From contig CAVXEP010000029.1 of the NCBI GenBank assembly GCA_963760795.1, forward strand, positions 192,001 to 256,000: a stretch of DNA of 64,000 nt, in the 5' to 3' direction. The DNA comes from an uncultured delta proteobacterium (GTDB lineage: Bacteria > Desulfobacterota > Binatia > UBA9968). Both the position numbers and the translations under genes were made by a program. The notes beneath the pieces were generated by a model. It was given only the letters and a program-made list of their open reading frames with translations, made no database searches and was not told the origin of the DNA. Of the stretch, positions 2,136 to 60,412 are shown one piece after another. Position 1 is the first letter of the stretch; the number at the start of each line of letters is the position of its first letter.

Positions 2136-2150
2136 GCAAGGCCTATGCCG
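2136..2150 (-). promoter_or_regulatory. Sigma-54 -24/-12 promoter
   Basis: CGGCAT-AGGCC-TTGC(A) on minus strand. Confidence 0.75.
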
Positions 2151-2519
2151 TTAATCATGAATGAAGCGCAACCGAGCAGCCATAAAATACTTAGCGAAAT
2201 CCCCGCGTCAGTGATCGAGTCGGTTTGTCCCGGATGAGTACTGTATGATTTTCTCCGACGCGCTAGGGGTTTCCCGCTCACTTATCGAATAGCATTCGAT
2301 TAAGAGCTCAGAGAGAAAAGCGCTTCAAAGAATTCGATTCGAGTGCGCGACGGTGGCAACCTTAGGGAAGCGCGCAATAATAAGAGGGAACAGAGCCGAT
2401 AGCCCGGCAACGATTGCGTATACTCGCAGCGTCACGCGTTTGCGGTGGCGTAAGCGGAGTGCCTAATAAGCAGTGATCTGGAGGCGTTGTCCTCGTTCGA
2501 GAGTACCGCCATTCATGGT

Positions 2520-4181
2520 TCATTTTTTCCTGCCGCGTCCGCTTTGTTGCTCGAAGCCTGGCAGGATCGCCTTGAAAAAAGCGTTTTGAACCAGGCCGAT
2601 AATAGTCTCCCAGGTGCTGGTCTCCGGATTGGCAAGTTTGCCTGATACCGGGATTGTGGTTGCGACTTGGTCGCGAGGCGTGTTTTGCAAAATCCATGAA
2701 AAGCCACCGATGATACCTTCGTAAAGCTGGCGGAATATTCCCTTTTCTTTATCTTGCCGGCGATCGTACACATTCATCTCATAAAATAATGGTTTAACGT
2801 ATCCTTCGACGCTGCCGTTTCTGACTGTAAGTTCGGAGAAAAATGAAAACTGTCCAGCGACAACGTCGAAGTTGCCGTAGGAGCGCCAAAAATTGTTCAT
2901 CAATTTCATATCGGTGTTTTCGATCGCAACGTTGAGGTCGAAATCCGGTCCTTTGGGGTTAGGACGCCCGGTGAACTCAATCTTAGTGGCGCCGCTGCCC
3001 ATTAATTTGCCCCGGACCAATCCGCTGGTCAGCCCTTGCTTGGATTGATTGCTTAAGTTGGCGATCTGTAAATCGAGATCGCTCAAGAACAAACGATACT
3101 GCGGATCGCGCGCCGCGTTGATAAAGCCCAACTTACCTTGAACCTGAACCTTGTCGATGTTCACAACTAATTCCGCAGTGTCGCTGTATTTTTTGGCGGC
3201 GCTATCTACTTCCTTGCCGGTTGTTGTTGCCACCGATTCGGCCTTTTTATGAATGTAATCCATGTCCGCGCTTCGCACGCGCAGCTCGGCGATGTCAATG
3301 CGCTGGCTGTCGGTGCCGTATTCGACGTTGCCGAATGCGGATAAGCTGCCCTGCCGCACGGTCATACTGTAGCGCTCGACGATCGGTTTGAAGTATGCGA
3401 GATCGACATTTTCCAAGGCAATGGTTTCAGTTTTCAATGTCGCATGAGGCTCGGCAAGTAGATCGGCGTGACCGTCGGCGCGAAGCGTGCCTTTTTCAAA
3501 GACCGCTGCTTGGATCTGTATTGGCGAGGGATACACGTTAGGATCGGATTTTACATTGCGAATATTTTCCGCGAGCAGTTCAATCCGTGTTAACTCGAGA
3601 GGACGAAATGGTCCTTCGTCGACATAGGTGAGCGAACCGTCGCGAATCATAAAGCGGTTGATTTTTAACGGATAGATTTCTTCGAGTGCTTGCTGCCAAC
3701 CGCGTTCCTTCATCGGTATTTTATCGTCGAACTCAGTTTTTGCCTGCTTGCGGTTGATGTAAAGTTTTGGATTGTCGATGGCAAAATCAGCCACCAGCCG
3801 TCCACGTAGCAGGCCGCGCCAATCGATGCTGGCGCTCAGATTGGCGATCTGCGCCACCGGCGGCTCGGGATTGTCGTTCTGAATGATAACGGAGTTTTCG
3901 AGCTCGAGGGAAAGACCGATGGGATGAAAGTCGAGTTTGCCGATGCGCACCGTGTATCCTGCGAGCGCGCGGTTCAGGTTAGCCTCCATGCGCCGGCGTA
4001 ACGGCTCATCGATAAAAAACGCGGCGATCACAACGAGCACCAGTAAGCCGACCAACGCGCTGCCGGACCAGAACACCGCCTTGCGTGTCTTTGAACCGAA
4101 GAGCGTGTGCGCCAAACCGGCGCGCCACTGGCGTGCCCGGGTGCCCGAGCGGTATGCCTGAAGCTGTTCCGTTACACTCAT
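2520..4181 (-). CDS. DUF748 domain (AsmA-like) membrane-anchored protein
   Basis: N-terminal TM, beta-rich body, C-terminal GYVKPLF...DQVATTIPVSG...LVQNAFFKAI signature. Confidence 0.8.
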   Translation of the reverse strand: MSVTEQLQAYRSGTRARQWRAGLAHTLFGSKTRKAVFWSGSALVGLLVLVVIAAFFIDEPLRRRMEANLNRALAGYTVRIGKLDFHPIGLSLELENSVIIQNDNPEPPVAQIANLSASIDWRGLLRGRLVADFAIDNPKLYINRKQAKTEFDDKIPMKERGWQQALEEIYPLKINRFMIRDGSLTYVDEGPFRPLELTRIELLAENIRNVKSDPNVYPSPIQIQAAVFEKGTLRADGHADLLAEPHATLKTETIALENVDLAYFKPIVERYSMTVRQGSLSAFGNVEYGTDSQRIDIAELRVRSADMDYIHKKAESVATTTGKEVDSAAKKYSDTAELVVNIDKVQVQGKLGFINAARDPQYRLFLSDLDLQIANLSNQSKQGLTSGLVRGKLMGSGATKIEFTGRPNPKGPDFDLNVAIENTDMKLMNNFWRSYGNFDVVAGQFSFFSELTVRNGSVEGYVKPLFYEMNVYDRRQDKEKGIFRQLYEGIIGGFSWILQNTPRDQVATTIPVSGKLANPETSTWETIIGLVQNAFFKAILPGFEQQSGRGRKK

Positions 4182-4266
4182 AAATTCTCTGCTGCTGCTG
4201 GTCCCTCTACCCGCACTAACTAAATGTCAGAGCTCGCACATTGGCGAGCACACGGGGCAGCTATTT

Positions 4267-5850
4267 TCACCCAGTGCTGGCGCCCCAGCCGCCAAATAAC
4301 CGGCTTAGACTCGTCAGGCTTTTGGATATAAAAGAATCTGCAACGCAATCACTGGGTTTAGCCTGTGCCTCGCGAGCGATTTCCGCGTCGAAGGGCAAGC
4401 CGTTGGGAAAAAGCGTCAGCAGCCAAAGGTGCTCCTCTGAAAGGCTGCGCGCCGGGTGATGGCGCAGGCGAGTCTTGCCGCTGTCGGCTAAGCCATTCAA
4501 ATAGTCCACCAACCCGTCGACAGCGCCGAGCCGATCGCCAGCCTGCGCGTCGAGCCCGGTATGCTCGGCAAGCAAGTTTACGCGGGCAGCGCGGATCGAG
4601 TGGCTAAGCCTGCTGCCCGGCACGTCATCCCAGGAAACATTGAGTTCGGTGTCATAGCCCATGCTACGGTTATTCATGTTCGCCGAACCGATGCTGAGAA
4701 AGCGGTCGTCGATCAAGAGCAGCTTCGAATGAATATAGGTAGGCAAATCAGTGCCGTCAGCGGCAATCGAGACCGGATAGTATATGCCGAACGAGTGACC
4801 GGTTTCGGCTGCGACTTCTTTTAAGCGGCGAATGATCCGGCTCTGCGCGATAGCGATGGAGAGTTGTTCTAAAAACGCCTCGGCATCTTTGGCGATTACT
4901 AAAACGATCTCAAGGCGCCCTCGCCGGTGCTGACGCATGCGCTCGATCAAAGCATCGGAAAGCGCTTCCGAACTGCAATATTGGTTTTCGATGTAAATCA
5001 GACTTTCGGCGGCATCGATAGCATCGAGAAAGAGTTGGCGGATTTCAAGGATCGGTTTGTCGCCGCGGCTCTGGGGAACCTCGGTCCGGCTGATCGCCAC
5101 TCGTTGGGCGGCAAGCGCAACGCTCGGGTCGAAAACTAGTTGCCGTGGTTCGCGGTCAGCCGCGGCCAAATCAAGGCAGTCGCCACAAACAATTTGCCAA
5201 CGTTGCTTGAAGAGTTCCGCGAGCTGCTGGGCGACGGGTCCGACGTGATAGGACTGCAAGTCATGGAAGGTGCGATAGCTAGAGCCGTCGCTGTTGACTC
5301 GCAGCGGATTATCTGGCCGATGATCGCGCTCATCCCAGCGGCTGGCGCAAAGATCGATGCCGCCAACAAAACTGAGAGTACCGTCGATGACGACGAACTT
5401 CTGATGATGCGAGGCATCGAACGATTCGCCGCGATCATAGCAGAACTTGAGTCGCTCATTGGTACTCCAATTGAAATGCCAGTCTTGAAACCATTCCCGG
5501 TCGAGGCTGTACAGCATGCTGTAGTCCCAGGCGAGCATGTATATGCGTAGCGCGGGTTTGCGCTCGCAGAGCTCGTTAAGAAATTCCAAGAGGTGAATTT
5601 TCCCCTGCGCGTGTTCCGCCTCGGCGCCGCGTAAGAGTGCCGTGCCACTGTCGAACTGCCAGCCCGAAATGAGAATGTAACGCTCGGCTGTTTGGGCGGC
5701 ACGATAGAACGCGCGGTAGTAGTCGCCGCCGTCGATGAGCAGTCCTGTCTGGCTCACCGACCCCGTCCGCCAGCAGTTTCGCCCCGACTTCAATAGCGTG
5801 TGCCTGGCCGGCGATCGCAGTAACCGTCGCAGTCGTTTGGGTGTGTTCAT
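4267..5850 (-). CDS. Phospholipase D family protein
   Basis: Two HKD motifs: HQKFVVID and HSKLLLIDD...GSANMNNRS. Confidence 0.92.
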   Translation of the reverse strand: MNTPKRLRRLLRSPARHTLLKSGRNCWRTGSVSQTGLLIDGGDYYRAFYRAAQTAERYILISGWQFDSGTALLRGAEAEHAQGKIHLLEFLNELCERKPALRIYMLAWDYSMLYSLDREWFQDWHFNWSTNERLKFCYDRGESFDASHHQKFVVIDGTLSFVGGIDLCASRWDERDHRPDNPLRVNSDGSSYRTFHDLQSYHVGPVAQQLAELFKQRWQIVCGDCLDLAAADREPRQLVFDPSVALAAQRVAISRTEVPQSRGDKPILEIRQLFLDAIDAAESLIYIENQYCSSEALSDALIERMRQHRRGRLEIVLVIAKDAEAFLEQLSIAIAQSRIIRRLKEVAAETGHSFGIYYPVSIAADGTDLPTYIHSKLLLIDDRFLSIGSANMNNRSMGYDTELNVSWDDVPGSRLSHSIRAARVNLLAEHTGLDAQAGDRLGAVDGLVDYLNGLADSGKTRLRHHPARSLSEEHLWLLTLFPNGLPFDAEIAREAQAKPSDCVADSFISKSLTSLSRLFGGWGASTG

Positions 5851-5891: not shown

Positions 5892-5906
5892 GCAAAGGCC
5901 GCGCCA
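5892..5906 (-). promoter_or_regulatory. Sigma-54 promoter of PLD-DUF748 unit
   Basis: TGGCGC-GGCCT-TTGC(T) on minus strand. Confidence 0.75.
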
Positions 5907-6069
5907 GGTTAAGCGGCCGTCTATTTACTGCCTTTTGTCTTAGATGCGCGACGAAATTTCGCCGGCTGTCGCGAAACTGAGACGGGTCGATTGTTGCGGG
6001 TAAGTCGCGTAAGAGGAGTCTACTCTGGGCTCTTACCTTGTCGAAGCGTCGATCATTATCCAGCAGAAG

Positions 6070-6084
6070 TGGCATAAGGCTTGC
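6070..6084 (+). promoter_or_regulatory. Sigma-54 promoter, divergent from the PLD promoter
   Basis: TGGCAT-AAGGC-TTGC(T). Confidence 0.8.
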
Positions 6085-6138: not shown

Positions 6139-6375
6139 ATGGCCGGACGGCGGATAGGAGTGAGGGCGGTGCTAGCGCTTTTGGGGGCCATCACCGGTGT
6201 GGTGATGATTTTTGTTGGTAAGCCCGGCTGGGGATTATTGCTGGCGGTATGCGCCGTGGTACTTGGCGCGGTCGGACTTATTTTACCGGCCTCGCCGCCG
6301 GTAAGGGGCGGAGTGATTAGAGTCTTCGCCATTGCAATAGCCATTATTGGTATCGGATTGTCGGTACTTGGGTGA
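6139..6375 (+). CDS. Small membrane protein (about 3 TM)
   Basis: 78 aa strongly hydrophobic ORF directly downstream of a sigma-54 motif. Confidence 0.55.
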   Translation: MAGRRIGVRAVLALLGAITGVVMIFVGKPGWGLLLAVCAVVLGAVGLILPASPPVRGGVIRVFAIAIAIIGIGLSVLG

Positions 6376-6934: not shown

Positions 6935-6949
6935 AGGCAGGACGGTTGC
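6935..6949 (+). promoter_or_regulatory. Sigma-54 promoter
   Basis: AGGCAG-GACGG-TTGC(T) upstream of the glycogen debranching gene. Confidence 0.6.
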
Positions 6950-7108: not shown

Positions 7109-9127
7109 GTGCCGTTTAGCGGCGAAGGATCGGCGGCACCGGAGGTTTTAGCCGAGCGCGAATGGCTGATCACCAACGGTTTGGGTGGATACGCCTCAGG
7201 CACGTTGCTCGGCGCCATTACCCGGCGTTATCACGGCTTATTGATCGCTGCACTGCCGGCGCCGCTCGGCCGCGTGATGATGCTGAACCAACTAACGGAA
7301 TATCTTGAGTTGCCCGATCGCAGGCAAATCGAGTTGTCATCCGGGTTAGGTTTCAACGAAAGCAGCGAAAGCCCCGGCTTTGCGTCGCTGGCGGAATTTC
7401 GCCTGGAAGATGGTGTGCCGGTGTGGCGTTATCAGATCGGTGGCATCGTCATCGAAAAGAAAATCTTCATGGTGCACGGGCTAAATACCACACTGATCAG
7501 CTACGATTTACTCGAGGGCGATGAGCGCGTGCGGGTCAAGCTTTGTCCCCATGTGCAATTTCGCCCCCATGAAAACTTAGTGGATAAAGCATTGGAAGAC
7601 TATACCTTGAGGGCGACGTGTGGTGGATTTGAAATCTGTACCGCCGCGGCTCATCCGCCGTTGCGTTTGCTCGTGCACGGTCGCGATTGGGGTTTTAGCG
7701 GCGGCCACGCCAAGATCGATAAAGTGTTTTTTCGCGCCGAACAGCAGCGCGGTTATGAGGCGTTCGGCGAGCTATGCAGTTTCGGTTGGTTTGAAGCCGA
7801 AGTTTGCCTTAATGAGCCGATGACTGTGATTGCCTCGACGGAATCCTGGGAATCGATTACCGAAATGACGCCGCAAGAGAGTTACGCCGAGGAATTTTCC
7901 CGGCGGCAGCGGCTGGCATCAAGGGCCGGAATCGAAGATGGCACATCGATTAAAGCGGAGTTGGTGCTGGCTGCCGATCAGTTTGTCATCGCGCCCGTCG
8001 ATCCCAACAAAGAAAAAGACGCCGTCGGCGCACACACGATTATCGCCGGCTATCATTGGTTTACCGATTGGGGCCGTGACACGATGATCAGCTTGGAAGG
8101 GCTGACGCTGCTGACCGGCCGCCAACGCGAGGCGCGCGGCATACTCGACGTATTTTCCGAACATATTCGCGACGGGCTGATTCCAAACTTTTTTCCTGAG
8201 GGAGAGCAGGAAGGGGTCTATCATACCGCGGACGCGACGTTGTGGTTTTTTCACGCTCTGCAGCGTTATCTCGAAATGACCGACGATCGCGAATTTTTGC
8301 GCCAACTGCTGCCGAAATTGTCCGACATCGTGACCAAGCATCTGCAGGGTACGCGCTTCGGTATCGGCGTCGATCCGGAGGATGGCCTGCTGCGACAAGG
8401 GCAAGAAGGCTACCAGCTCAGCTGGATGGACGCCAAGGTAGAGGATTGGGTGGTGACACCGCGGCGCGGCAAAGCGGTGGAGATCAACGCCCTGTGGTAT
8501 AACGCGTTACGTCTGCTCGAAGGATGGCTGCGCGAAGAAGGTGATGGTGAGAACGCGCGCGAGATCGCTGGACACGCGCTCAAAGCCCAGGATTCTTTCA
8601 ACCGCCGCTATTGGTATGACGAAGGTGGTTATCTCTACGACGTTATCGATTGTGACAACGAAAGTGAAAAAAACGATCCCGCATGTCGGCCCAATCAAAT
8701 CATGGCTATCTCGCTAGACCATCCGGTCCTCGATAGCGAGCGCTGGCGTCCGGTGCTCAATGTCGTTCGTCAGCGCCTCGTCACACCCTACGGTCTGCGC
8801 TCGCTGGCGCCGAACCATCCGGACTACCAAGCGCGTTATTTCGGCGATCTGCGCGCGCGCGATGCCGCTTATCACCAAGGTACCGTTTGGGCTTGGTTGA
8901 TTGGGCCGTTCGTCGATGCGTGGTTGAAAGCCTACCCTGACGATCGCGCCGGCGCGCGCGGATTTCTAACAGCATTTGCCGATCACTTGGGCGAGGCTTG
9001 CATCGGCACGATCAGCGAGATCTTTGACGCCGAGCCACCGTTTACGCCACGCGGCTGCGTCTCTCAGGCTTGGAGCGTTGCCGAAGTGCTGCGCTGCGCG
9101 ATCAAGACCGGCGCTTTGGGCCGCTGA
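7109..9127 (+). CDS. Amylo-alpha-1,6-glucosidase (glycogen debranching enzyme)
   Basis: REWLITNGLGGYASGT, IIAGYHWFTDWGRDTMISL, WMDAK, YHQGTVWAWL, QAWSVAE; true start may be ATG 7024 via frameshift. Confidence 0.93.
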   Translation: MPFSGEGSAAPEVLAEREWLITNGLGGYASGTLLGAITRRYHGLLIAALPAPLGRVMMLNQLTEYLELPDRRQIELSSGLGFNESSESPGFASLAEFRLEDGVPVWRYQIGGIVIEKKIFMVHGLNTTLISYDLLEGDERVRVKLCPHVQFRPHENLVDKALEDYTLRATCGGFEICTAAAHPPLRLLVHGRDWGFSGGHAKIDKVFFRAEQQRGYEAFGELCSFGWFEAEVCLNEPMTVIASTESWESITEMTPQESYAEEFSRRQRLASRAGIEDGTSIKAELVLAADQFVIAPVDPNKEKDAVGAHTIIAGYHWFTDWGRDTMISLEGLTLLTGRQREARGILDVFSEHIRDGLIPNFFPEGEQEGVYHTADATLWFFHALQRYLEMTDDREFLRQLLPKLSDIVTKHLQGTRFGIGVDPEDGLLRQGQEGYQLSWMDAKVEDWVVTPRRGKAVEINALWYNALRLLEGWLREEGDGENAREIAGHALKAQDSFNRRYWYDEGGYLYDVIDCDNESEKNDPACRPNQIMAISLDHPVLDSERWRPVLNVVRQRLVTPYGLRSLAPNHPDYQARYFGDLRARDAAYHQGTVWAWLIGPFVDAWLKAYPDDRAGARGFLTAFADHLGEACIGTISEIFDAEPPFTPRGCVSQAWSVAEVLRCAIKTGALGR

Positions 9128-9281: not shown

Positions 9282-10115
9282 TTACTGGCTGGAACCGCTT
9301 TTATTAGCACCGCGATCCTTGGGGTTGCCCTCGTTTGGATCGATCGTCGTGCTTTTAGAGGGAGGAACCGACGTTCCACTCCCTACCGAGCCTGCGCCGG
9401 AGCTACCGCCGCTGCCGGAGCTACCAGGCTTGGCAGCGCCACGGTCTTTGGGATTGCCCTCGTTTGGATCGATTGTGGTGCTCTTCGAAGGCGGCACCGA
9501 GGTTCCACTCCCTACCGAACCTGCGCCGGAGCTACCGCTGCCGGAACTACCTGAACTGGAACTGCCGGTCGCTGAACCGCCGCTACGAGGGTTGCCCTGA
9601 TTTTTTTCGAGCACGTTGCTGTCGCGATTCGGAGCGCCGCTCGATGCGCCGCTAGCGCTCCCTGAACTGGAACCACCCAAACTGGAGCCGCTGGCGGAGG
9701 AGAGGGTCACCCCCAACGCACTGGCGGTGCCGCTGTCGAGTTGTCCGCTGGTTTGGATATTCTGCGCGCGTTGGAAGGATCGTAATGCTTGCTGAGTCCG
9801 AGCGCCCATTACCCCATCGATCGGTCCAGGATCATGTCCCTTATTCTTTAAGGCCTCCTGAACACTCTTCACGTCGGCTGCTGACCATTGACCGCTCGCG
9901 GAAGAAGGTTTCATCGAATCCATGCTGCTGCGTCCGGTTGAAGATTCTGCTCCCTTGGGCCGTTGCTGATCCTGCTGCGTTGCCGAACCTGATGATCCTG
10001 ATGTTCCCGGCGAAGTCTGCGACCAACCTGTCATTGGGCAAATTGTTAGAGTGCCCAAAACCATCCCCGAAATAATCGCACTATTCTTTTTTCTCATGCA
10101 CGTTTCCCCTTTCAA
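9282..10115 (-). CDS. Exported peptidoglycan-binding (PG_binding_1) protein with Ser/Gly-rich repeated tail
   Basis: Signal peptide; VKSVQEALKNKGHDPGPIDGVMGARTQQALRSFQ...SGQLD; start may be 10097. Confidence 0.85.
   Translation of the reverse strand: MKGETCMRKKNSAIISGMVLGTLTICPMTGWSQTSPGTSGSSGSATQQDQQRPKGAESSTGRSSMDSMKPSSASGQWSAADVKSVQEALKNKGHDPGPIDGVMGARTQQALRSFQRAQNIQTSGQLDSGTASALGVTLSSASGSSLGGSSSGSASGASSGAPNRDSNVLEKNQGNPRSGGSATGSSSSGSSGSGSSGAGSVGSGTSVPPSKSTTIDPNEGNPKDRGAAKPGSSGSGGSSGAGSVGSGTSVPPSKSTTIDPNEGNPKDRGANKSGSSQ
9305..9545 (-). repeat. Two-copy 129-bp (43-aa) coding tandem repeat
   Basis: GAGSVGSGTSVPPSKSTTIDPNEGNPKDRGA twice; CCCTACCGA at 9381 and 9510. Confidence 0.9.
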
Positions 10116-10157
10116 TCAAAAATTATTCTAGCGTTGCGCTCTACAATAAGAGTAACC

Positions 10158-10172
10158 GCAAGGAGCATGCCA
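10158..10172 (-). promoter_or_regulatory. Sigma-54 promoter
   Basis: TGGCAT-GCTCC-TTGC(G) on minus strand. Confidence 0.8.
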
Positions 10173-10661
10173 CGGGAATTTGTGGCTGGAACCGTTCATA
10201 CTCGGCGTTTCTTGCAATCAAGCGTCTTAATATTGCGAAAGCCCAAGCGATGGTTGTCCCAATTGAAAGACCGTGCGAAAGGGCTCCGGATTGGCAGTCG
10301 TTACCACCATGAGAGCAGATTCTCGTTTTACCGTGAGCTGAGGACAACAAGGGATGCGCTGGGGCTAATCGGAAAACCAAATCCAAGAGATAACGCGTGA
10401 CGTCTTGAATCTGAGACAACGCGCCGCGATGGATAGTCGCTGCTGGGCGCAAACCGCCGCAAATGTTTGGTTCTGCTTTTGCTTTATCCACGGTCGGATT
10501 GCGAATTCCCTGATGAGAAAAAATTATTACCCCAGGTACCGCGGATACTAAAGATGGCGAAGCGACGATGAATTCGATCGCCGCCGCTGGCCGCTACACC
10601 AGGATGAGAGGGATCGTCTCTCTAAAATTACCAACGTGCGCAACAACGGAGGATAGTTAAA

Positions 10662-11027
10662 ATGGAAGCATACGGCACCTCAACGTATACCGGGCAACCG
10701 GCCAAAACTGAAGACCAATTTACCAAGGCGGTTGAAGATTACACAGCGGAGATTCCCTCCTCAGCCTATCTCGGCATTGCTCTCGGAGCGATGGGGCTGT
10801 CGCTCGTTTGTCAAGCGATGGGACAAGGCAAATGGGGCAACTTCATCGCCCAGTGGGTGCCGACTTGGTTGATCATCGGTGTCTACAACAAATTAGTAAA
10901 GCTCGAAGGGCACGATCAACAGCGATCGGGCCACGGGGTATTCGCACTGAGTTTTTGGCGCGGCGGCTGCATCTGCCCTATCGAAAGGCAGGACATTTAT
11001 GATACCGGCTACTACTTCTCGGGTTAA
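10662..11027 (+). CDS. Conserved small membrane protein (C-terminus uncertain)
   Basis: GGAGG RBS; IPSSAYLGIALGAMGLSL...NFIAQWVPTWLIIGVYNKLVK. Confidence 0.7.
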   Translation: MEAYGTSTYTGQPAKTEDQFTKAVEDYTAEIPSSAYLGIALGAMGLSLVCQAMGQGKWGNFIAQWVPTWLIIGVYNKLVKLEGHDQQRSGHGVFALSFWRGGCICPIERQDIYDTGYYFSG

Positions 11028-11457
11028 TGAACATACCCCCGATCACATTAACGAACGCATCGCCCGCAAGACACAAGCAAACCTCGAATTTTACGGCTCG
11101 GCGGGCGGCGCATCGATTGCTCGCCGCCTAGCCGAGCTTGACCGTGAATGGGACATCGAACGCATGCTCGAAGCTAACGCGGCCTCGGCTGTGCTGTTAG
11201 GAATGTATTTGAGTATTACGCGTAGCCGCGGGTGGCTGCTGCTGCCAATGGCCGTCGGCGGATTCTTACTGCAGCATGCTGTCCAGGGATGGTGTCCACC
11301 CCTCATCTGGTTGCGCAGAATGGGTTTTCGAACCGCAAGCGAGATTGACCACGAGCGCTACGGCTTAAAAGTGCTGCGTGGCGACTTCGCGGATCTGGTA
11401 TCGGCCAGCCGTGAGTTGAGCGATGTACGCAACGTGCTGCACGTCGTTAAACAATAA
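10999..11457 (+). CDS. DUF2892-like membrane protein
   Basis: LDREWDIERMLEANAA...FLLQHAVQGWCPP...GFRT. Confidence 0.75.
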   Translation: MIPATTSRVNEHTPDHINERIARKTQANLEFYGSAGGASIARRLAELDREWDIERMLEANAASAVLLGMYLSITRSRGWLLLPMAVGGFLLQHAVQGWCPPLIWLRRMGFRTASEIDHERYGLKVLRGDFADLVSASRELSDVRNVLHVVKQ

Positions 11458-11460
11458 AAG

Positions 11461-12664
11461 ATGGCGCGAAATTACTCTGCAACATTGACGACCGGCAGCG
11501 CTGATCCTGTCGCGGCGGCCGAGGCAGCGCGGTTGCGCTATGTCGGTGACTGGCAACCCGGTTTCTCCCGCAAGCTTACTAAAAAGAGATTTGTCTATTT
11601 AAATTTGCAAGGTCAGCCGCTGCGGGATCGGGTAGATCTCAGCCGGATTAAAGCGCTGGCTATCCCGCCGGCTTGGACGGGCGTTTGGATCTGTTCAAAA
11701 ACCAACGGTCATTTGCAGGCAACCGGACGCGATGCCCGGGGCCGTAAGCAGTATCGTTATCACGCGCGTTGGCGCGAGGTGCGTGACGAAAATAAATATC
11801 AACGCATGATCGCATTTGCCCAGGCTTTACCGGCAATTCGCGCCAGTGTTCACAGGGATTTGACGCTGTTCGGATTGCCGCGCGCTAAAGTGCTCGCGAC
11901 CATCGTCAAACTGCTTGAATCCACTCACATTCGCGTCGGCAACGAAGAGTACGCGCGGAGCAACCAATCATTCGGATTGGCGACGCTGCGCAACCGCCAT
12001 GTAAAAGTAAACGGACGGAACATTCGATTTCAATTTCGCGGTAAGAGCCGCGTCGCACATGCCATCGATTTGCAGGATAAACGCTTGGCGCGGATCATCA
12101 AACGTTGCCAAGATTTACCAGGCTACGAACTGTTCCAATATGTCGACGAGGCGGGCGCGACGGTTGCCATTGAAGCGGGCGATGTCAATGAATATCTGCG
12201 CGAGATTGCCGGCGCAGAATTTAGCACCAAGGATTTTCGCACCTGGGCCGGTACCCTGGTGGCAGCCCATGCGCTGCGCGCCTGCGCCGACTGTGAGTCG
12301 AAGGCGCAAATCAAACGAAACATTGTCCAGGCGGTCGAAAAGGTTGCACGGGTTTTGGGAAATACTAAAGCCGTCTGCCGCAAATGTTACATCCATCCGG
12401 CGGTTATCGAGGCATATTCGTCTGGCGCGCTCGGCCGCGATTCGCGCCCGCGTGCGCGGCGTTGCTGCTCGATCAGATTTGGCCCCCGAAGAAGCGGCGC
12501 TCGTCGCACTTTTAGAGCAGCAGGTGCGAGCATCCAGCGCAAAAGCAAAACCGCTCGCGCAAGCAAAACGTCAGCGCCAAAATCAAACGCCTTTCAAAGA
12601 TATTTGTCGGTCGTGCGCTGCGCCATGGGCGCTGAAACTACGCAGCGCGTCCGCAGGACGCTAA
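11461..12664 (+). CDS. DNA topoisomerase IB (bacterial/poxvirus type), frameshift near 12465
   Basis: IPPAW, GRKQYRYH, RVGNEEY, FRGKS, KDFRTW, VCRKCYIHP (catalytic Tyr); C-terminal LAPEEAALVALL lies in the frame ending at 12664. Confidence 0.93.
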
Positions 12665-12787
12665 AATCCAAGCTTGTGTTTGGTCTGTTGCAAAACCGGC
12701 ACGCATTCAATCGCTAGGAATCCTAATTCTAGGACGTGACGGCTATCGGCAAGAAATCTATTCCCGACAAAAAGTAACAATTATGAG

Positions 12788-12802
12788 TGGCACGTTAGTT
12801 GC
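12788..12802 (+). promoter_or_regulatory. Sigma-54 promoter
   Basis: TGGCAC-GTTAG-TTGC(G), consensus match. Confidence 0.88.
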
Positions 12803-12836
12803 GCTAAGCAGATTGCGATGGAAACAAGGAGGTAAA

Positions 12837-13224
12837 ATGAAAAGCATATCAATATTATTGTTTGCCGCATTACTCGCCGTCGGTTGTTCAAAAGAACGTG
12901 CCGACGAAAAAGTGGCTCAAACCCCCGCTCCGGATAATTCTGGGACGAATGTGCGAGACCGCAATGACCAAACCAAGACTGCCGGGAGATCAGTCGGAAA
13001 GCGAAGCCGATCGAACCATAAGCCAAAATATCCGGCAGTCGCTCACTTCGGACGATTCGCTTTCCACCAACGGCAAGAACGTTAAAGTGATTACGATCGA
13101 CGGCAAGGTGACGTTGCGCGGGCCGGTGAAGAGCGATCAAGAAAAAGCCGCCATCGCCGCTAAAGCCCAGCAAGTGGCCGGCGTCAAGAATGTCGATAAC
13201 CAATTAGAAATCGCAAGCAATTAA
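12837..13224 (+). CDS. BON-domain (OsmY-like) lipoprotein, frameshift near 12980
   Basis: AGGAGG RBS, lipobox LAVGC; ADRTISQNIRQSL...VKVITIDGKVTLRGPV...VKNVDNQL. Confidence 0.88.
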
Positions 13225-13251
13225 CTTAACCAGTAACACCTAGGAGGATTT

Positions 13252-13811
13252 ATGGCAAAATCTGTATTTTGTTTAGTCGATAGCGAAACCCAGGCCGAAG
13301 CTATCGTAGATAATCTCAAGGCGGCAAATTTTTCCCACAACGATATTTCGGTGTTGTTTCCGGATAAATCCGGCACGCAGCGATTTTGCCCACGAACAAA
13401 ACACCAAAGCGCCCGAAGGCGCAGCAACGGGCGCCGGTACCGGCGGAGCGGTGGGCGGCGTTTTGGGTTGGTTGGTCGGCATCGGAACTCTGGCGATTCC
13501 TGGTGTCGGTCCATTCATCGCGGCCGGGCCAATCATGGCGGCATTGGCGGGCGCGGGTGTGGGTGCGGCGGTCGGCGGATTGACTGGCGCTCTGATCGGC
13601 ATGGGCATTCCGGAACTACGAAGCCAAGCAGTATGAAGGAAAAATTAAAGGCGGCAACATTCTCATTTCGGTTCATTCAGAGAACAGCGATGAGACAAAG
13701 CGCGCCAAAGAGATCTTCGAGCGATCCGGCGCTCATGACATTTCCTACACCGAAGAGGAAGGTGTCGCAAAAGAAGACAAAGCCCGACCTGCAGCAGGGT
13801 TTAGAAACTAA
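13252..13811 (+). CDS. General stress membrane protein (YflT/DUF3341-like), two frameshifts
   Basis: Joined frames give MAKSVFCL...DISVLFPD...KAPEGAATGAGTGG...GTLAIPGVGPFIAAGPIMAAL...MGIPE YEAKQYEGKIKGGNILISVH. Confidence 0.8.
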
Positions 13812-13835
13812 CTGCGCGGAAGGATGGACAAGTCG

Positions 13836-13946
13836 ATGAAGTTATTACGCAACCAGACAGGAAAAGTCGGCTGGATCTTATTGTGGGCATTAGGAGTTCC
13901 AGTGCCAATTTTGGTTCTGCTATTTCTCATGCGCGGGTGCACGTAG
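13836..13946 (+). CDS. 36-aa small membrane protein MKLLRNQTGKVGWILLWALGVPVPILVLLFLMRGCT
   Basis: Clean ORF with one TM, last gene before a hairpin. Confidence 0.75.
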   Translation: MKLLRNQTGKVGWILLWALGVPVPILVLLFLMRGCT

Positions 13947-13996
13947 TCGGTCCTTTTCAACAGCGCTGATAGTTCGATTCCAGTAACAAGTTAATA

Positions 13997-14032
13997 CTGG
14001 CCGGCAGCCGGGGAAAGCAGGCTGCCGGCCAG
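13997..14032 (+). terminator. GC-rich hairpin closing the BON operon
   Basis: CTGGCCGGCAGCC...GGCTGCCGGCCAG. Confidence 0.6.
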
Positions 14033-14196
14033 CACAGTGATTCAGCAGAATTCCATCAATCCGAAGTCGAAAATGAGCGAGCAAGACATAATCCAGGGCG
14101 AAGTACGTTGTGAGGGGCGCGACCTTCGCTAACGGGCGGTTGCACTCTCAATAATCCGCGGCTACGCAGCTGGTTGTTAAAATAAATATAACATGT

Positions 14197-16078: not shown

Positions 16079-16151
16079 TTCTGTTTCTCACCGTTGCAAC
16101 GCCGCATTGAGCCGGTCGAAAACAGGTTAGCAATAACCCGCGAGCGCAGGG

Positions 16152-16166
16152 TGGCATGCGCGTTGC
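16152..16166 (+). promoter_or_regulatory. Sigma-54 promoter of treZ-glgX
   Basis: TGGCAT-GCGCG-TTGC(G). Confidence 0.8.
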
Positions 16167-16184
16167 GATTTATTTGGCGCAATC

Positions 16185-18122: not shown

Positions 18123-18160
18123 CGATTTGAAACCTGCCTAGAACTGTTTTGGAGGGACCT

Positions 18161-20794: not shown

Positions 20795-20809
20795 TGGTAC
20801 GTTCGTTGC
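20795..20809 (+). promoter_or_regulatory. Sigma-54 promoter
   Basis: TGGTAC-GTTCG-TTGC(T). Confidence 0.8.
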
Positions 20810-24439: not shown

Positions 24440-26680
<2,241 letters not shown>

Positions 26681-33504: not shown

Positions 33505-33519
33505 GCAACTAGCGTGCCG
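33505..33519 (-). promoter_or_regulatory. Sigma-54 promoter of the ferritin-like/katE/dehydrogenase unit
   Basis: CGGCAC-GCTAG-TTGC(T) on minus strand, 237 nt upstream of the first CDS. Confidence 0.78.
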
Positions 33520-36564: not shown

Positions 36565-36579
36565 TGGACTAACAATTGC
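36565..36579 (+). promoter_or_regulatory. Sigma-54-type promoter (variant -24 box)
   Basis: TGGACT-AACAA-TTGC(A), 33 nt upstream of the CDS. Confidence 0.6.
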
Positions 36580-38315: not shown

Positions 38316-38330
38316 TGGTACTATCTTTGC
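38316..38330 (+). promoter_or_regulatory. Sigma-54 promoter
   Basis: TGGTAC-TATCT-TTGC(A). Confidence 0.8.
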
Positions 38331-40653: not shown

Positions 40654-40784
40654 TCGAGTTCACCTCCTTTTAGTCGATAGATTCGGACCTAATCTAATTT
40701 AAGTCTAGCGAGCTTTACCCAACTCATCCCAACATCGAGAACGTGCTCGGTAACGACCGCATGACGTCTGCGGCAAACTAAAAT

Positions 40785-40799
40785 GCAATTGTCAGTCCA
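40785..40799 (-). promoter_or_regulatory. Sigma-54-type promoter upstream of the metallothionein
   Basis: TGGACT-GACAA-TTGC(A), near-identical to the 36565 site. Confidence 0.6.
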
Positions 40800-42082: not shown

Positions 42083-42363
42083 CGGCTAGACTTCCTTACA
42101 CCAGGCCTGTGCGCTACAGCTTGGGATCATTTTTAACGATTGTGTTTGAATGAGCGTCTTACACGCGAGCAAGCGCTCTGACGCCGCGGCAATCGTTTTT
42201 CCGTGCTGAGCATCGCGCCAAGCTCGATTACCAACCCTACATCTACCCGAACTCACTGCTTAGGATGAATCAGAATTGTGACACCGGCATACTAAATTTC
42301 CCAAGTTTGGAACAAAGTTGATTCTCTAGCCGCTAGCAACGGGCTATCAGGTCTATAGTTTAG

Positions 42364-42378
42364 CGGCACGTTAGTTGC
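42364..42378 (+). promoter_or_regulatory. Sigma-54 promoter
   Basis: CGGCAC-GTTAG-TTGC(G), same core as the 12788 site. Confidence 0.75.
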
Positions 42379-45182: not shown

Positions 45183-45626
45183 TTAGCTGGCTTTGCGTTG
45201 CCGCTGACCCTTTGCTGCTTCGAGGTCCGCGCCGAGCTGTTCAAGCTTTTGTTTGCCCATAATTTGGCGAAGTTTGGGAAACATTTTCCCTTCTTCTTCT
45301 TCTTCCGCGTGGTGCTCTACGTTCTCCATCAGCACCTTTAGTTTGGGCTCAAATTTTTCGCTGTCCGAGGCCAAACTGTCCATTTCGCGCAGCAGCGTCT
45401 TGATCTGTTTATGTTCTTCCAGCGACTCGAGCACCATGTCTTTGAGCTCTTCATGCTCTTGTACCGCGGGGTAGAAGACGGTCTCCTCGATACGCGCATG
45501 GGTTTCGAGCTCGGTTTTGATCTCCTCGAAGACTTCTTGCTGATCTTCTCCTTCGGTATCTTCGGCCTGTTCGAAGAGCTCTTTAACCTTTTGATGATCC
45601 TGTTTAAGTAGTTCTAAAGCGTCCAT
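45183..45626 (-). CDS. Hemerythrin/HHE-domain protein
   Basis: LKQDH, HARIEETVFYP, EEHKQ, HHAEEEE. Confidence 0.9.
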   Translation of the reverse strand: MDALELLKQDHQKVKELFEQAEDTEGEDQQEVFEEIKTELETHARIEETVFYPAVQEHEELKDMVLESLEEHKQIKTLLREMDSLASDSEKFEPKLKVLMENVEHHAEEEEEGKMFPKLRQIMGKQKLEQLGADLEAAKGQRQRKAS

Positions 45627-45664: not shown

Positions 45665-45679
45665 GCAAATGATAGACCA
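45665..45679 (-). promoter_or_regulatory. Sigma-54 promoter
   Basis: TGGTCT-ATCAT-TTGC(T) on minus strand. Confidence 0.6.
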
Positions 45680-45862
45680 CACGATAAATGATAGATTGCG
45701 CGGTATTACGCCGCTGGATTGTCCCGGTCCTAGGATTTGACAACGATGCCGCGGTCAACGATGGGACACGCGTGAAATATCAAGGAGGTAATTGCCGGGA
45801 AAAAATTCAGAAAACGTGGGCGCCCGAATTCTCAAAAGAAGGATCTTAGAATCTCCCATCGT

Positions 45863-56154: not shown

Positions 56155-59100
56155 TTACTCTTTGGAGCTGCCCTTTTTGAGTTGCGGATTCGGATTGCGC
56201 AGTGCGGCCAGATAGGTTGTCCGCGGACGGGTGTTGAGTTCTTCGAGCAAGCTGTAATTGCGCGGATCGGCTTTTAGGGCCGCGACTTTGCTCTTCGGAT
56301 CGTTGAGATCGCCGAAGACGATGGCCTCGGCGGGACAGGCTTGCTGGCAGGCGGTGACGATCTCGCCGTCCTTGACCCGCCGCCCTTCTTTCTCGGCTTC
56401 GATCTTGCCCTGGTTGATGCGCTGCACGCAGTAGGTGCATTTTTCCATGACGCCGCGGCTGCGCACGGTGACATCCGGGTTGCGCTGCGCTTTCAAACTC
56501 TCGATGTTCCAGTCGGAAAATTGCAAAAAATTAAAGCGCCGCACTTTGTACGGACAGTTGTTCGAGCAATAGCGCGTGCCGACGCAGCGATTGTAGACCA
56601 TGTCGTTGAGTCCTTCGGCGCTGTGCGCCGTCGCAGCCACCGGGCAGACCACTTCGCAGGGCGCATTCTCGCAATGCATGCACGGCACCGGTTGGACAAA
56701 GGTTTGCGGATCGTCCGGTGTGCCTGTGAAATAGGTATCGATTCGCAGCCAGTGCATTTCCCGCGAGCGCAGCACCTGGTCTTTGCCCACCACCGGAATA
56801 TTATTTTCCGACTGGCAAGCCACCACGCAGGCATTGCAGCCGAGGCAGGCGTTGAGATCGATGGACAGGCCCCACTTGTAGCCGTTGTACTCGTACTGCG
56901 GATAAAGCGAGGGGTGTTCCGACTCGCCCTGGGCAAAGTTGGGCTTGGCGACAAACTCCTCGAGGGTTGCCGCGCGGACGATGTCGCGTCCCTCGAGAGC
57001 GTGGTGAATCTGCGTCGCCGCCAGTGCCAAGCGCTCGCCGGATTTGCCGATCTCGGCGCCGCGCGCCGACCACAGCGCGTCGGCGGTGCGCAAGCGGTAA
57101 GCATCGAAGCCCACGCCGCGGCCCACCGGACCGACGCGGCTGCGGCCGTAGCCCAGCTGCAATTCTATCGTATCCTCGGCCTGTCCCGGGACAATCCATA
57201 CCGGCGCGCGCACCGTGCGGCGGTTCAATCTGACCTCGATCACGTCGGCATCGACGTTGCCGCCGCGCAAGCCGACAGCGGTATTGAGCCCCAATCGATT
57301 TGCCGTGGCGGGACTCAGATAGGCGGCGTTGTCCCAGGTGAGCTTGGTGAGCGGCTTGGGCAGCTCCTGCAACCAGCCGTTGTTGGCAAATCGGCCGTCG
57401 AAGAGGCCCGGGTCGGGCCGGAACACGAGTTCCAGAGACTTGGGATTTTGCCGTTGCGCATCGGCGGCGTCGGCAGATTTTGAATTTTGCATTGGTAATT
57501 TGCCATCCGCGCTCTCGCCCCCTGGCAAATTGCGCAACTGAGGATTGGGACGAGGCAACAGCGCTCGCAGCCAGCTTTGGCGTCAGCGGTTTTGCTGCAA
57601 ACGCGCTATCTTCGACAAGGCCGTCGTGCAGACTCTTGCGCCACCAGCGCGTGAAATCGCCTTCGGCTTTGCCTGTCTGTTTGCGCCAGTGCTCCCTGAC
57701 AATGTCGTAGCCGGACTGTGCCGGCTGCGCACTCAACGCGGCAAGCAATTCATGGGCGGTTCGGCCTTGGTAGAGGGGCGCGATGAGCGGTTGTAAAATC
57801 GTCGCCGTGCCGTCATAGGCGCGCGCGTCGCTCCACGATTCGAGATAATGCGCGGCAGGGATATGCCACTGGCAAAGCGCGGAGGTCTGATTGATCTCGG
57901 AGCTCAGATGGACGCGCAGCGCGACTTTGGCCAGGCCTGCGGCAAAATCAAGATCGGCCGGCGCGGTATAGACCGGATCGCCCTCGATAATAATCAACGT
58001 CGACACCGCGCCACGCGTCATATCTTGCGTCAGTTCGCGCAACGAAGCGATTTCGTTCACCGGATCCGCTTGCACCGGTTCCGTGTACACGACCGTCTGT
58101 CCGACATTACCTAAAGAATGGTTGATGGCGTGGGCGAGGGCGTGCACGGCGATCGGTTGCGCTTCGCTAACCAAGACGAGACTCTTGCCGCGATGCTGCT
58201 GCAAATCGGCCGCGACCGCGCTGAGCCAGCGCTCATGGTCGGTCGTAAGCTGGCCGCCGCTGGCGCCCAATCGCGCCGCCAAGGCACGCGCGAAGGGTTC
58301 CATCGCGCTGGGCGGTAGCGCGAGCCGGTGATCGGCCTGGGCGCCAGCGCTGCTTGGGCTCGATTCAATCGCATACAAACGATTCATTGCCGGCGCGCCA
58401 CCGCCGACGCGGCGCCGCCGGGCGAAGTCATGAGCGTAGCGCAAATAACCGGGACTGCATGACAACAGATCGGCGCCGAAAGCAAGGATGATATCGGCTT
58501 TGTCCAAACGATACTGGGTTTGCGCATAGCTACCGAAGGCGAGCAGAGCGCCGGCGCGGGTATGGTGGCAGCCTGCGGGTTCCCACTGATGCCATCTTGC
58601 CGCCGGGTACTCTTTTAAAAGCCCGCGCAACTGCTCGGCTAAAGTCGGCGAGCTGACGGCGCCGGTGAGGATTCTCAAGCCCCGGCCTTGAGTTTTTTTC
58701 TCCTGTTCAAGGACCGCGCGCAGGGCTACGACAAAGGCGTCCCACGGCCGGATTTTCCCCCCATAGGTGGGGGTTTGTGCGCGCGCCGGGTCCCACAGAT
58801 CGAGCACCGATGCCTGGGCATAAACATCGGTGGCGCCGAGACTGGCGGGATGCAGTGGATTGCCTTCGACCTTGGTCGGCCGGCCCATGTGGCTTTCGAC
58901 CAATAACCCTGTGGCCAAACCGGCGAGCGGCATGGCGGTGGCAAAATACAACGGTTGGCCGGGGACGATTTCTTCCGGTTGGCGAACGTAGGGCACGATG
59001 GTCTCGGTCGGCGCGCGGGCGCAGCCGGCGATTCCGGCCAGTGCCAGCGAAGCACCCATGAGTTTCAAGAAGCGGCGCCGGCTCACCGGATCGAGCGCGA

Positions 59101-59191
59101 CGTCGACCTGGCTGGAATATTCGCGCCGGATAAATTCGCGAAACTCTTCGGTATCGGCAAATTCTTCTAGCGTGCGCCAGTAGTTATTCAT
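56155..59191 (-). CDS. actB: Alternative complex III subunit ActB (molybdopterin-like + Fe-S), frameshift near 57520
   Basis: SRRRFLKLMGAS (Tat), GRPTKVEGNPLHP, NNGWLQE, CLGCNACVVAC, CMHCENAPCEVVCP, CVGTRYC, EKCTYC. Confidence 0.95.
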
Positions 59192-59892: not shown

Positions 59893-59964
59893 CGAAGCGG
59901 TGCAAAATTGCGGGCAAACTTCCGTCTATCGTGCATGCATAACGCCGCACCGTAGGTGAGGTCA

Positions 59965-59979
59965 GCAACGTATGTGCCA
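59965..59979 (-). promoter_or_regulatory. Sigma-54 promoter of the ACIII-oxidase operon
   Basis: TGGCAC-ATACG-TTGC(T), consensus match on minus strand. Confidence 0.88.
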
Positions 59980-60397
59980 GTATGGAACGATGCGCTGGTC
60001 GGGATGTTTAGGCCAAGCGCTGCAGGGTCATTGGAATTGCTCGCTAAATAAAATACCGGGTCGGCATCCGGAAAAAGGTAGATCTTCATATATGTTGCGA
60101 TCGAGCCGCACAATTGCCGGCTTGCTTATTTAATCACTGCAAGAGTGCGCAGCGATATCGGCTCCTGCTTGTCGTCATCGGCGGCGGTCGGTCTATTTCC
60201 CGGTCTCTTAGCAACACTGAGAAAAACAAAGTTTTTTGTTTCGCTCCTGGGACACGGCATTTAGTGGCCGGGCCAGCCGTGGGTGGTTTAACCCATGAAT
60301 ATCCCATCGGTGAGACGTGGACTGTAGCCATTGTCCGAGGGTCGCAACAAAATGGCAAGCCGTTCGAATGTTTTACGCCGTTTTGCTTGTGCAGCGG

Positions 60398-60412
60398 TGG
60401 TACACGCTTTGC
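60398..60412 (+). promoter_or_regulatory. Sigma-54 promoter of ku-ligD
   Basis: TGGTAC-ACGCT-TTGC(G). Confidence 0.8.

Follow-up and report, generated by a model that had tools for sequence, protein, structure and literature searches.

The window analysed here is a 64,000-nucleotide (nt) stretch from an uncultured member of the Binatia (G000:C29:192001-256000; assembly G000 comprises 6.58 Mb in 35 contigs, has a G+C content of 55% and is 89% complete), and the element in question is a set of 16 candidate sigma-54 promoters spread among genes for stress protection. Pfam searches with the window's proteins agreed with the gene readings of an earlier account of this DNA (hereafter the initial annotation). 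They identified two large catalases (KatE), KatG and a Fur-family regulator; a PLD/cardiolipin-synthase-like protein, DUF748, a glycogen debranching enzyme, and TreZ-like and GlgX-like proteins; a BON protein, topoisomerase IB, CBS-YflT, BrkB, two hemerythrins and two HSP20s; DUF3597, ADH, two Transgly_assoc proteins, HAD, DUF6766 and an isochorismatase-family protein; and an alternative-complex-III/caa3 oxidase string, Ku and LigD. An NCBIfam search with eight proteins encoded downstream of the promoters, small or without an assigned function, returned no matches.

The flanks of the window continue the theme, with two CsbD genes, a ferritin/Dps-like gene and additional BON, CBS and hemerythrin genes, along with FtsH, HtrA, SodA, M48 peptidases, PsiE, NDH-2, a second oxidase, a KaiC/KaiB pair, some ten PAS/Cache/GAF histidine kinases and three response-regulator activators. 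Genes for KatE, Dps/ferritin-like proteins, CsbD, BON/OsmY, trehalose and glycogen enzymes, Ku/LigD, GlsB-type proteins, hemerythrin and HSP20 are members of the regulons of RpoS (proteobacteria), SigB (Firmicutes) or EcfG (the EcfG-NepR-PhyR system of alphaproteobacteria).

The initial annotation had proposed that this gene set runs on sigma-54 and an enhancer-binding protein, pointing to 16 GG-N10-GC sites that end in TTGC. All 16 were present at the coordinates and on the strands it listed (plus-strand sites are numbered from the base before GG, minus-strand sites from the C of GC), and all are intergenic and point at a start codon; gene and intergenic status come from our own crude codon-usage gene caller, by which 82% of G000 is coding. 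The site at 2136(-) overlaps only the longest reading of the open reading frame (ORF) 1864-2139; about 50 nt downstream there is a start preceded by a ribosome-binding site. Loose GG-N10-GC matches were not enriched in the window (800, versus 812 ± 25 in shuffled sequence). The pattern GG-N8-TTGC occurred 72 times (51.8 ± 6.2 in shuffles) and the strict pattern TGGYAY-N5-TTGC eight times (0.64 ± 0.80), counts that none of 100 shuffles reached. Across the genome the strict pattern had 110 copies (1.07 per 64 kb), 89 of which (81%) were intergenic despite the high coding fraction, and 64 of the 110 lay within 400 nt upstream of a same-strand gene.

A sigma-54 weight matrix trained solely on sites outside C29, and hence independent of the window, gave the same picture. 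At a threshold of 7.05 bits it accepted 122 of 12,226 intergenic GG-N10-GC sites and 40 of the approximately 78,000 coding ones, from which we estimate about 100 real sigma-54 promoters in the genome. (Expectation-maximisation learning run without constraints on every intergenic GG-N10-GC site moved towards a GC-rich, hairpin-like motif, and its result was discarded.) Contig C29, which is 8% of the genome, carried 32 of the 122. Site density exceeded background, as the initial annotation had anticipated: the window held nine matrix-passing sites, against a mean of 1.3 over 574 windows of 64 kb. The densest such window, C29:168001-232000, held 16, all of the densest windows fell on C29:112-330 kb, and the genome's densest sigma-54 promoter region, C29:168-330 kb, contains the window. 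Scores of the 16 sites ranged from 14.8 (20795+) down to 4.1 (36565+), and the −24 element was off consensus at 6935 (AGGCAG) and at 36565 and 40785 (both TGGACT). Most of the 16 are very probably real sigma-54 promoters. Eleven are good candidates for promoters of one regulon and 59965(-) for a promoter without the shared enhancer described below, so that about 12 of those initially proposed hold up; 2136(-) is possible, and 6935(+), 36565(+) and 40785(-) are doubtful.

The shared upstream enhancer is an element new here, beyond the promoters of the initial annotation. It was derived by comparing the 300 nt upstream of island promoters with those upstream of other sigma-54 promoters. The 7-mer TGGGACA/TGTCCCA was found in 12 of 36 island upstream regions and 2 of 109 others, and forms the inverted repeat TGTCCCA-N4-TGGGACA. 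When spacers of 0-9 were tried, only a spacer of 4 gave an intergenic, C29-rich set (26 matches with at most two mismatches, 14 of them intergenic; the eight on C29 were all intergenic). An iterated weight matrix for this dyad became degenerate (707 matches) and was replaced by a fixed 14-position consensus, which underlies all dyad counts; a tandem is defined as two dyads of at least 9/14, spaced 30-33 bp, within −170 to −25. Tandem dyads accompanied 14 of the 122 sigma-54 promoters and 26 of 11,799 control intergenic sites (0.22%), and were concentrated at island promoters (12 of 26 within C29:165-335 kb, versus 2 of 96 elsewhere). Among weaker sites (4-7 bits), five of 64 had them, all five in the island.

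The evidence for this enhancer that is independent of its discovery consists of spacing, offsets and cross-genome conservation. Spacing played no role in finding the motif, and of the 19 dyad pairs 15-60 bp apart at island promoters, 17 were spaced at 30-33 bp, nine of them at exactly 31 bp. Counted upstream from the −12 GC, the dyad centres lie at approximately 62-74 and 94-108 nt, a separation of three helical turns, and proximal centres cluster near −52, −62/−63, −71/−74 and −82, which suggests helical phasing with the promoter. Within the window a tandem pair is present at nine of the 16 sites (5892-, 6070+, 10158-, 12788+, 16152+, 38316+, 42364+, 45665- and 60398+), a single dyad at two (20795+ and 33505-) and none at five (2136-, 6935+, 36565+, 40785- and 59965-). 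At least 17 promoters with the common enhancer lie within C29:170-325 kb, counting the nine in the window. From this architecture, a dedicated activator that reads the tandem dyads seems likely.

The individual features, as predicted from the sequence, are given below with their matrix scores; dyads are scored out of 14 positions, protein and ORF lengths are in amino acids (aa), and G003 is a relative of the same genus whose syntenic island was aligned to the window (promoter regions 71-90% identical).

5892..5906, minus strand: sigma-54 promoter TGGCGCGGCCTTTGC, score 6.7, 42 nt before a PLD/cardiolipin synthase-like gene (4267-5850; Pfam PLDc); an identical 15-mer stands at the syntenic place in G003.

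5936-5953 and 5967-5984: tandem dyads, 31 bp apart, common to the divergent promoters 5892(-) and 6070(+), with 9/14 and 10/14 matches to TGTCCCA-N4-TGGGACA.

6070..6084, plus strand: sigma-54 promoter TGGCATAAGGCTTGC, score 14.4, before a 78-aa membrane ORF (6139-6375), with the glycogen debranching gene (7109-9127; GDE Pfam match) further downstream; the syntenic G003 site is TGGCATAACGCTTGC.

10158..10172, minus strand: sigma-54 promoter TGGCATGCTCCTTGC, score 10.3, before a gene for a peptidoglycan-binding-domain protein (9282-10115; Pfam PG_binding_1), with tandem dyads at 10223-10240 and 10255-10272, whose centres are at −73 and −105; G003 has the identical 15-mer.

12788..12802, plus strand: sigma-54 promoter TGGCACGTTAGTTGC, score 9.7, 60 nt before the BON-domain (OsmY-like) gene (12862-13224), with dyads at 12686-12703 and 12719-12736; the promoter is kept in G003.

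16152..16166, plus strand: sigma-54 promoter TGGCATGCGCGTTGC, score 7.7, before the TreZ-like and GlgX-like genes (16185-20378), with dyads at 16052-16069 and 16084-16101; G003 keeps −24/−12 with an altered spacer (TGGCACAGGCGTTGC) in a region just 71% identical overall.

20795..20809, plus strand: sigma-54 promoter TGGTACGTTCGTTGC, score 14.8, before CBS-YflT (20885-21682) and then BrkB-family and hemerythrin genes, with a single dyad at 20717-20734.

33505..33519, minus strand: probable sigma-54 promoter CGGCACGCTAGTTGC, score 6.8, before a gene for a 203-aa protein without assigned function (32657-33268) and that for a large catalase KatE (30112-32607), with a single dyad at 33569-33586 (10/14, centred at −72); the stretch of G003 searched holds no alignable counterpart.

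38316..38330, plus strand: sigma-54 promoter TGGTACTATCTTTGC, score 8.1, before a gene for a Transgly_assoc (GlsB-type) membrane stress protein (38373-38642), with dyads at 38220-38237 and 38250-38267; G003 keeps the promoter and the distal dyad.

42364..42378, plus strand: probable sigma-54 promoter CGGCACGTTAGTTGC, score 4.7, with C in place of T before GG; its dyads (42266-42283, 10/14, centred at −103, and 42297-42314, 12/14, centred at −72) are the best pair of the window; small ORFs and then DUF6766 (43039-43749) lie downstream, and the 15-mer is identical in G003.

45665..45679, minus strand: sigma-54 promoter TGGTCTATCATTTGC, score 12.7, 39 nt before a hemerythrin gene (45183-45626), with dyads at 45720-45737 and 45751-45768; G003 keeps the two promoter elements and the two dyads and has an altered spacer.

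60398..60412, plus strand: sigma-54 promoter TGGTACACGCTTTGC, score just 4.5, 45 nt before Ku (60457-61344) and LigD (61356-62954), with dyads at 60300-60317 and 60332-60349 and a third at 60237-60254.

59965..59979, minus strand: good sigma-54 promoter TGGCACATACGTTGC, score 9.7, before the alternative complex III/caa3 oxidase string (59892 to about 46144); it is identical in G003 and has no upstream dyad of 9/14 or better.

10468..10482, plus strand: candidate promoter TGGTTCTGCTTTTGC outside the list of 16, score 7.6, with a single dyad at 10401-10418, before genes at 10662-12717 (a protein without assigned function, a YgaP-like protein and topoisomerase IB); G003 has a better syntenic site, TGGCATTATGGTTGC.

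2136..2150, minus strand: possible sigma-54 promoter CGGCATAGGCCTTGC, score 7.0, before an 86-aa ORF without assigned function (1864-2124), with no dyads; the promoter part did not align to G003.

6935..6949, plus strand: doubtful site AGGCAGGACGGTTGC before the glycogen debranching gene, score 4.9, with the −24 element off consensus and no dyads; it was not recovered in G003.

36565..36579, plus strand: doubtful site TGGACTAACAATTGC, score 4.1, with no dyads, within a two-copy element of about 35 nt, before a gene for a 508-aa protein with weak MauG/di-haem peroxidase-like NCBIfam matches; the entire block, spacer included, is conserved in G003.

40785..40799, minus strand: doubtful site TGGACTGACAATTGC in the second copy of that element, score 4.2, with no dyads, before a Cys-rich 51-aa metallothionein-like ORF (40498-40653).

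The two-copy element, TGGACT-ACAATTGCATTT..GCTTGCCGC, spans about 35 nt at 36564-36600 and 40765-40800 of the window and is also kept in G003. As a regulon member, the TGGACT-ACAATTGC element at 36565 and 40785 was rejected: a genome-wide search found just these two copies, and TGGACT is off consensus. The promoter at 20795 belongs to a family of paralogous copies. TAAGGTTGGTACGTTCGTTGCTT, with nearly the same core, occurs four times in the genome (window 20795, C12:216039, C22:111071 and C29:459399), and three of the four precede short YflT-type paralogues of the C-terminal half of CBS-YflT, a pattern that identifies promoter and gene as having been duplicated together. Sites 33505 and 42364 also have common flanking sequence.

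Conservation was assessed in 40 relatives, comprising 24 of the same genus (g1), five of family f2 and 11 of family f3 (genus g3). In the aligned G003 island, −24/−12 is kept at 5892, 6070, 10158, 12788, 16152, 20795, 38316, 42364, 45665, 59965 and 60398, and the dyads are largely kept while spacers and flanks diverge. Among 25 Ku loci, site and dyads were present in all four of the close clade (G000, G003, G022 and G019; 82-100% protein identity), and no site was found at any of eight distant g1 paralogues or seven g3 loci. CBS homologues gave 21 loci, 20 of them assessable, of which 15 (one from the unpublished G004) had a site of at least 6.9 bits, two a weak site and three none. The BON gene was preceded by a sigma-54 site at 9 of 13 genus loci, mostly TGGCATGTTAGTTGC. 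For the ferritin-like gene (16 loci), the site was present in 3/3 close orthologues and 2/5 distant g1 homologues and absent at a 72% paralogue and at 7/7 g3 orthologues (61-64% identity). The conservation that the initial annotation expected at orthologues was thus observed within the genus, at the Ku, CBS, BON and ferritin-like loci and in the G003 island, and was not found at the Ku and ferritin loci of the sister genus g3. The dyad behaved similarly: it outnumbered its reversed control by 290 to 136 in 25 g1 genomes (G004 included) and showed no excess in the 16 genomes of f2 and f3 (210 versus 312). Since the excess is confined to g1, the wiring looks specific to a genus-level lineage.

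An NtrC-type response-regulator gene at C29:170081-171440 is the candidate for the protein that reads the dyads. The initial annotation had placed the activator elsewhere in the genome; this gene does lie outside the window, but not far, 21 kb upstream in the same island and apparently autoregulated. Its product has Response_reg (REC), Sigma54_activat and HTH_8 domains (Pfam), with the GAFTGA loop at residues 218-223. It missed every NCBIfam equivalog cut-off (AtoC, 465.1 of 714 bits; NtrC, 400.3 of 558.6; ZraR, 386.9 of 760) and by this measure is an unnamed member of the NtrC family; the nearest solved structures are of Aquifex NtrC-family proteins. The gene has its own sigma-54 promoter, TGGCACGTGGATTGC, 35 nt upstream, and at that promoter stands the best dyad of this region of the genome, CGTCCCAAAATTGGGACA, centred at −94, with a second at −63.

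Orthologues of the activator with a promoter and tandem dyads close upstream were found in G019 and G003 (94-97% identity) and in G017 and G010 (65-66%). In G022 (94%) the dyads are kept and no promoter exceeds the threshold; G020 (65%) has one dyad only. The 13-kb surroundings of orthologues in named Candidatus Binatia metagenome-assembled genomes (MAGs) likewise hold dense sigma-54 sites and dyads at the same offsets, and no such sites or dyads were seen at the activator loci of the next-best relatives (Ignavibacteria and Terriglobales, 46-49% identity). No kinase gene adjoins the activator gene; two hybrid kinases are encoded 11-17 kb downstream, and a near-perfect dyad stands before one of the two. 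From the autoregulatory placement and its conservation we infer that the activator binds the dyads, and we lean slightly towards the C29:170081 protein as their reader.

A paralogue of this activator (60% identical, C3:49771-50811) lies in the second densest sigma-54 region of the genome, C3:1-64,000, which has seven sites. TTTCGCA-N4-TGCGAAA-type repeats occur near promoters around it, and the region may be a sister regulon with an altered enhancer.

The genome carries one rpoN, as the initial annotation's proposal presupposes (a single Sigma54_DBD match of 212 bits in a 494-aa open frame, C25:136891-137364), and 26 strong Sigma54_activat matches. NtrC-family activator matches (E<=1e-60) number up to 27 in g1 genomes versus 2-5 in the sister family f3, and the lineage appears to have expanded activator-based control. 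Sigma-70-family matches number 12, none of them on the island. In keeping with the contrast that the initial annotation drew with known stress sigma factors, the best rpoS_proteo score in G000 was 293.8 (cut-off 378.7), the best Sigma_B score was 62.8 (cut-off 315), and NepR had no match in a search that found the Caulobacter control and did not extend to PhyR and EcfG themselves.

A different arrangement was seen in four other Binatia MAG loci (L135:792-2415, L152, L133 and L139), where a sigma-54 promoter with nearby dyads is followed directly by a sigma-70-family gene of approximately 510-530 aa (regions 1.2, 2, 3 and 4), about 5 kb from the activator orthologue. Those lineages could have a sigma-54-to-sigma-70 cascade. 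No orthologue of this sigma gene was found in G000, where the best match (37% identical) is the presumed RpoD. Two candidates for such a cascade in G000 were rejected: a 530-aa sigma-70-family gene has no sigma-54 site before it, and for a 333-aa one the only site is 700 nt upstream, before another small gene.

Our data are best accounted for by a stress-protection island of about 160 kb (C29:168-330 kb), of which the window forms the middle and in which many operons are transcribed from genuine sigma-54 promoters and a core set shares a common enhancer and a nearby activator, a reading to which we assign a probability of roughly 0.6. Sequence analysis shows the promoters and the layout of their enhancer, an activator gene arranged for autoregulation in a conserved manner, and a genome that has rpoN and gives no match to rpoS, sigB or NepR; we infer which kinase would feed the activator and that the trigger would be general stress, desiccation or stationary phase. 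In the proposed mechanism, the NtrC-family activator encoded at C29:170081-171440 would receive its phosphate from at least one of the island's hybrid PAS/Cache histidine kinases. The phosphorylated protein would assemble on the tandem dyads and use ATP to open sigma-54 closed complexes, switching on its own gene and its targets together. The targets would be the genes of CsbD, BON/OsmY-like proteins, TreZ, GlgX and the cardiolipin-synthase-like enzyme, together with those of GlsB-type membrane proteins, hemerythrins, KatE's upstream partner, Ku and LigD.

Several observations weigh against this reading. No sigma-54 site stands directly before the first KatE gene, KatG, either HSP20 gene, DUF3597 or ADH, and the sole site of the Fur-family gene, 24225(-), scores 4.5 bits. 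The island as a whole therefore does not form a single sigma-54 unit. The core of the initial proposal, that stress-protection genes here run on sigma-54 and an enhancer-binding protein, is nevertheless supported, and each of the computational checks suggested with it turned out in its favour. Tandem dyads are missing at 14 of the 26 strong island promoters; together with the three other response-regulator activators on C29, this makes more than one activator likely. Single dyads were also more frequent at island promoters (13 of 26) than elsewhere (13 of 96), an enrichment that is partly circular because the consensus came from an island-versus-other contrast. At Ku loci of 48-56% identity, a site stood directly upstream in one of six g1 loci. 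The activator gene is split in G000 by one extra A in an A-run (C29:171,100-171,180) relative to G019 and G003, which puts the HTH in another frame and may be a homopolymer sequencing or assembly error or a recent, real inactivation. Finally, with the genome 89% complete, the absence of rpoS, sigB and NepR amounts to 'not found' only.

The strongest of the alternatives takes the promoters as real and the island as a patchwork of small regulons without a master regulator, each with its own activator and specific stress (oxidative, osmotic, envelope or DNA damage). The island promoters without tandem dyads fit this view, as do the good promoter of the respiratory operon at 59965(-), which is probably served by a different activator, and the many CBS-family promoters in relatives without tandem dyads. 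There is also no shortage of regulators, with four response-regulator activators on C29 between 114 and 330 kb among the 26 of the genome, and many different sensor kinases plus a KaiB/KaiC pair in the island. Yet a single kind of enhancer, uniform in its spacing and its set of offsets, recurs across BON, TreZ, Ku/LigD, hemerythrin, GlsB-type, PLD-like and CsbD genes, as a common regulator predicts, and on this ground we judge a pure patchwork unlikely.

A second alternative holds that another protein, a repressor or an architectural factor, binds the dyads, that the neighbouring activator gene may be a pseudogene, and that the promoters are fired by an activator encoded elsewhere. The frameshift in G000 and the lack of a cognate kinase beside the gene could be so explained, and what links protein to dyads is autoregulatory placement and conservation. 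The frameshift is, however, a single homopolymer base in an assembly with further such breaks, and the genes of G019 and G003 are intact and encode 452 aa. Dyads at about −63 and −94 before a regulator's own promoter are typical of autoregulated activators, and here they persist down to 65% identity. Inverted repeats three helical turns apart and 60-110 nt upstream, as for NtrC at glnAp2, are moreover the classic sigma-54 enhancer layout. This explanation is improbable. That the sites are chance matches, or inert copies left by duplicated promoter-plus-gene modules, is more improbable by far: three of the 16 are weak and the copies of TAAGGTTGGTACGTTCGTTGCTT and the like flanks of 33505 and 42364 are clearly paralogous, but the strict pattern is far above its shuffled frequency and overwhelmingly intergenic, and its elements are conserved while spacers diverge, with enhancers at fixed offsets.

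Other features of the island stand beside the proposed regulon. The Fur-family regulator and KatG form a minus-strand tandem (window 23648-26638) without a strong sigma-54 site and resemble a peroxide circuit of the PerR/Fur type that lies within the island but is separate from the regulon. The extended stress island also contains, at C29:284945-288316, a row of genes for a KaiC-like ATPase, for KaiB and for a PAS hybrid histidine kinase, which could provide timing or metabolic input to the response.

Apparent frame breaks occur at two places in the window. The stress-protein gene after BON (13252-13839) shifts frame near 13450, and the large alternative-complex-III subunit (56155-59191) is split over the overlapping ORFs 56155-57558 and 56801-59191; both breaks suggest indel errors in the assembly. 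RNA-library contigs of relatives show 1-nt indels relative to the window at 13224, 13376 and 13618. Fourteen sequencing runs (13 recorded as RNA, one guessed) held 5-17% of the words sampled from 10000-19999 of the window, and in four of these runs contigs of relatives, 92-99% alike, match parts of this stretch, among them the BON gene. Three start points, 12825, 12827 and 12866, fall downstream of the promoter at 12788, and one of these contigs has a loose end that looks like library adapter. As contigs of relatives, they show neither a transcript start nor expression of this organism.

The closest parallels to the proposed system are NtrC at glnAp2, AtoC, ZraR and NtrX. These use the same promoter class (TGGCAC-N5-TTGC, GG and GC 10 nt apart), the same activator build (REC, AAA+ with GAFTGA, Fis-type HTH) and autoregulation, and likewise have tandem inverted-repeat enhancers approximately three helical turns apart and 60-110 nt upstream. 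The Binatia dyad sequence differs from theirs, as does the activator, which reaches none of the equivalog cut-offs, and the putative targets serve general stress protection rather than nitrogen, acetoacetate or zinc. In gene content, the island resembles the textbook set of the RpoS, SigB and EcfG regulons, whereas its promoters are of the −24/−12 type and would need an ATP-driven activator instead of an alternative sigma-70-family factor. PspF (phage shock), RtcR (RNA repair), NorR (nitric oxide) and ZraR (envelope/zinc) also pair sigma-54 with a dedicated stress activator, but control one or a few operons; the Binatia island has at least 17 promoters for many functions.

In Borrelia, the Rrp2-RpoN-RpoS pathway sets a response-regulator activator and sigma-54 atop a stress and adaptation programme. 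The top level is alike; the sigma-70-family link was seen only in the four other Binatia MAG loci, whereas in G000 sigma-54 promoters stand directly on effector genes. A survey of sigma-54 lists PspF as the control of a membrane stress response and assigns the general stress response to Sigma-S and Sigma-B; in the sections of the survey available here, the words catalase and trehalose do not occur (PMC3162934). Full-text literature searches, whose coverage leaves out subscription journals, returned no account of a sigma-54 general stress regulon or of sigma-54 in Binatia. The proposed mechanism is ordinary, that of sigma-54 with an NtrC-family activator, and the regulon content is the unusual part.

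Whether the whole amounts to a general stress or desiccation response we regard as an even call. Somewhat below that, and tentatively, we suggest a genus-level lineage without a sigma-70-family stress sigma factor, which would run its whole dormancy and desiccation programme on sigma-54, one autoregulated master activator reading the tandem enhancers across the 160-kb island, hybrid kinases and a KaiBC timer. Such a programme would include antioxidants, the turnover of compatible solutes and of glycogen, the remodelling of membranes, the end-joining of DNA and possibly a switch in respiration. It would be a fourth and mechanistically distinct solution after RpoS, SigB and EcfG, gated by ATP and tightly off by default.

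Textbooks present general stress responses as cases of control by alternative sigma-70-family factors, and sigma-54 is usually tied to nitrogen, motility and the cell exterior, besides a small number of narrow stress operons. If our interpretation is correct, this large, clustered and conserved regulon of classic general-stress genes would show that a sigma factor gated by an activator, and so with almost no basal expression, can also carry such a response. It would also provide the first regulatory model for the Binatia, a widespread uncultured soil lineage, and its promoter-plus-enhancer grammar would make the regulon predictable in metagenomes and testable in a heterologous host without culturing.

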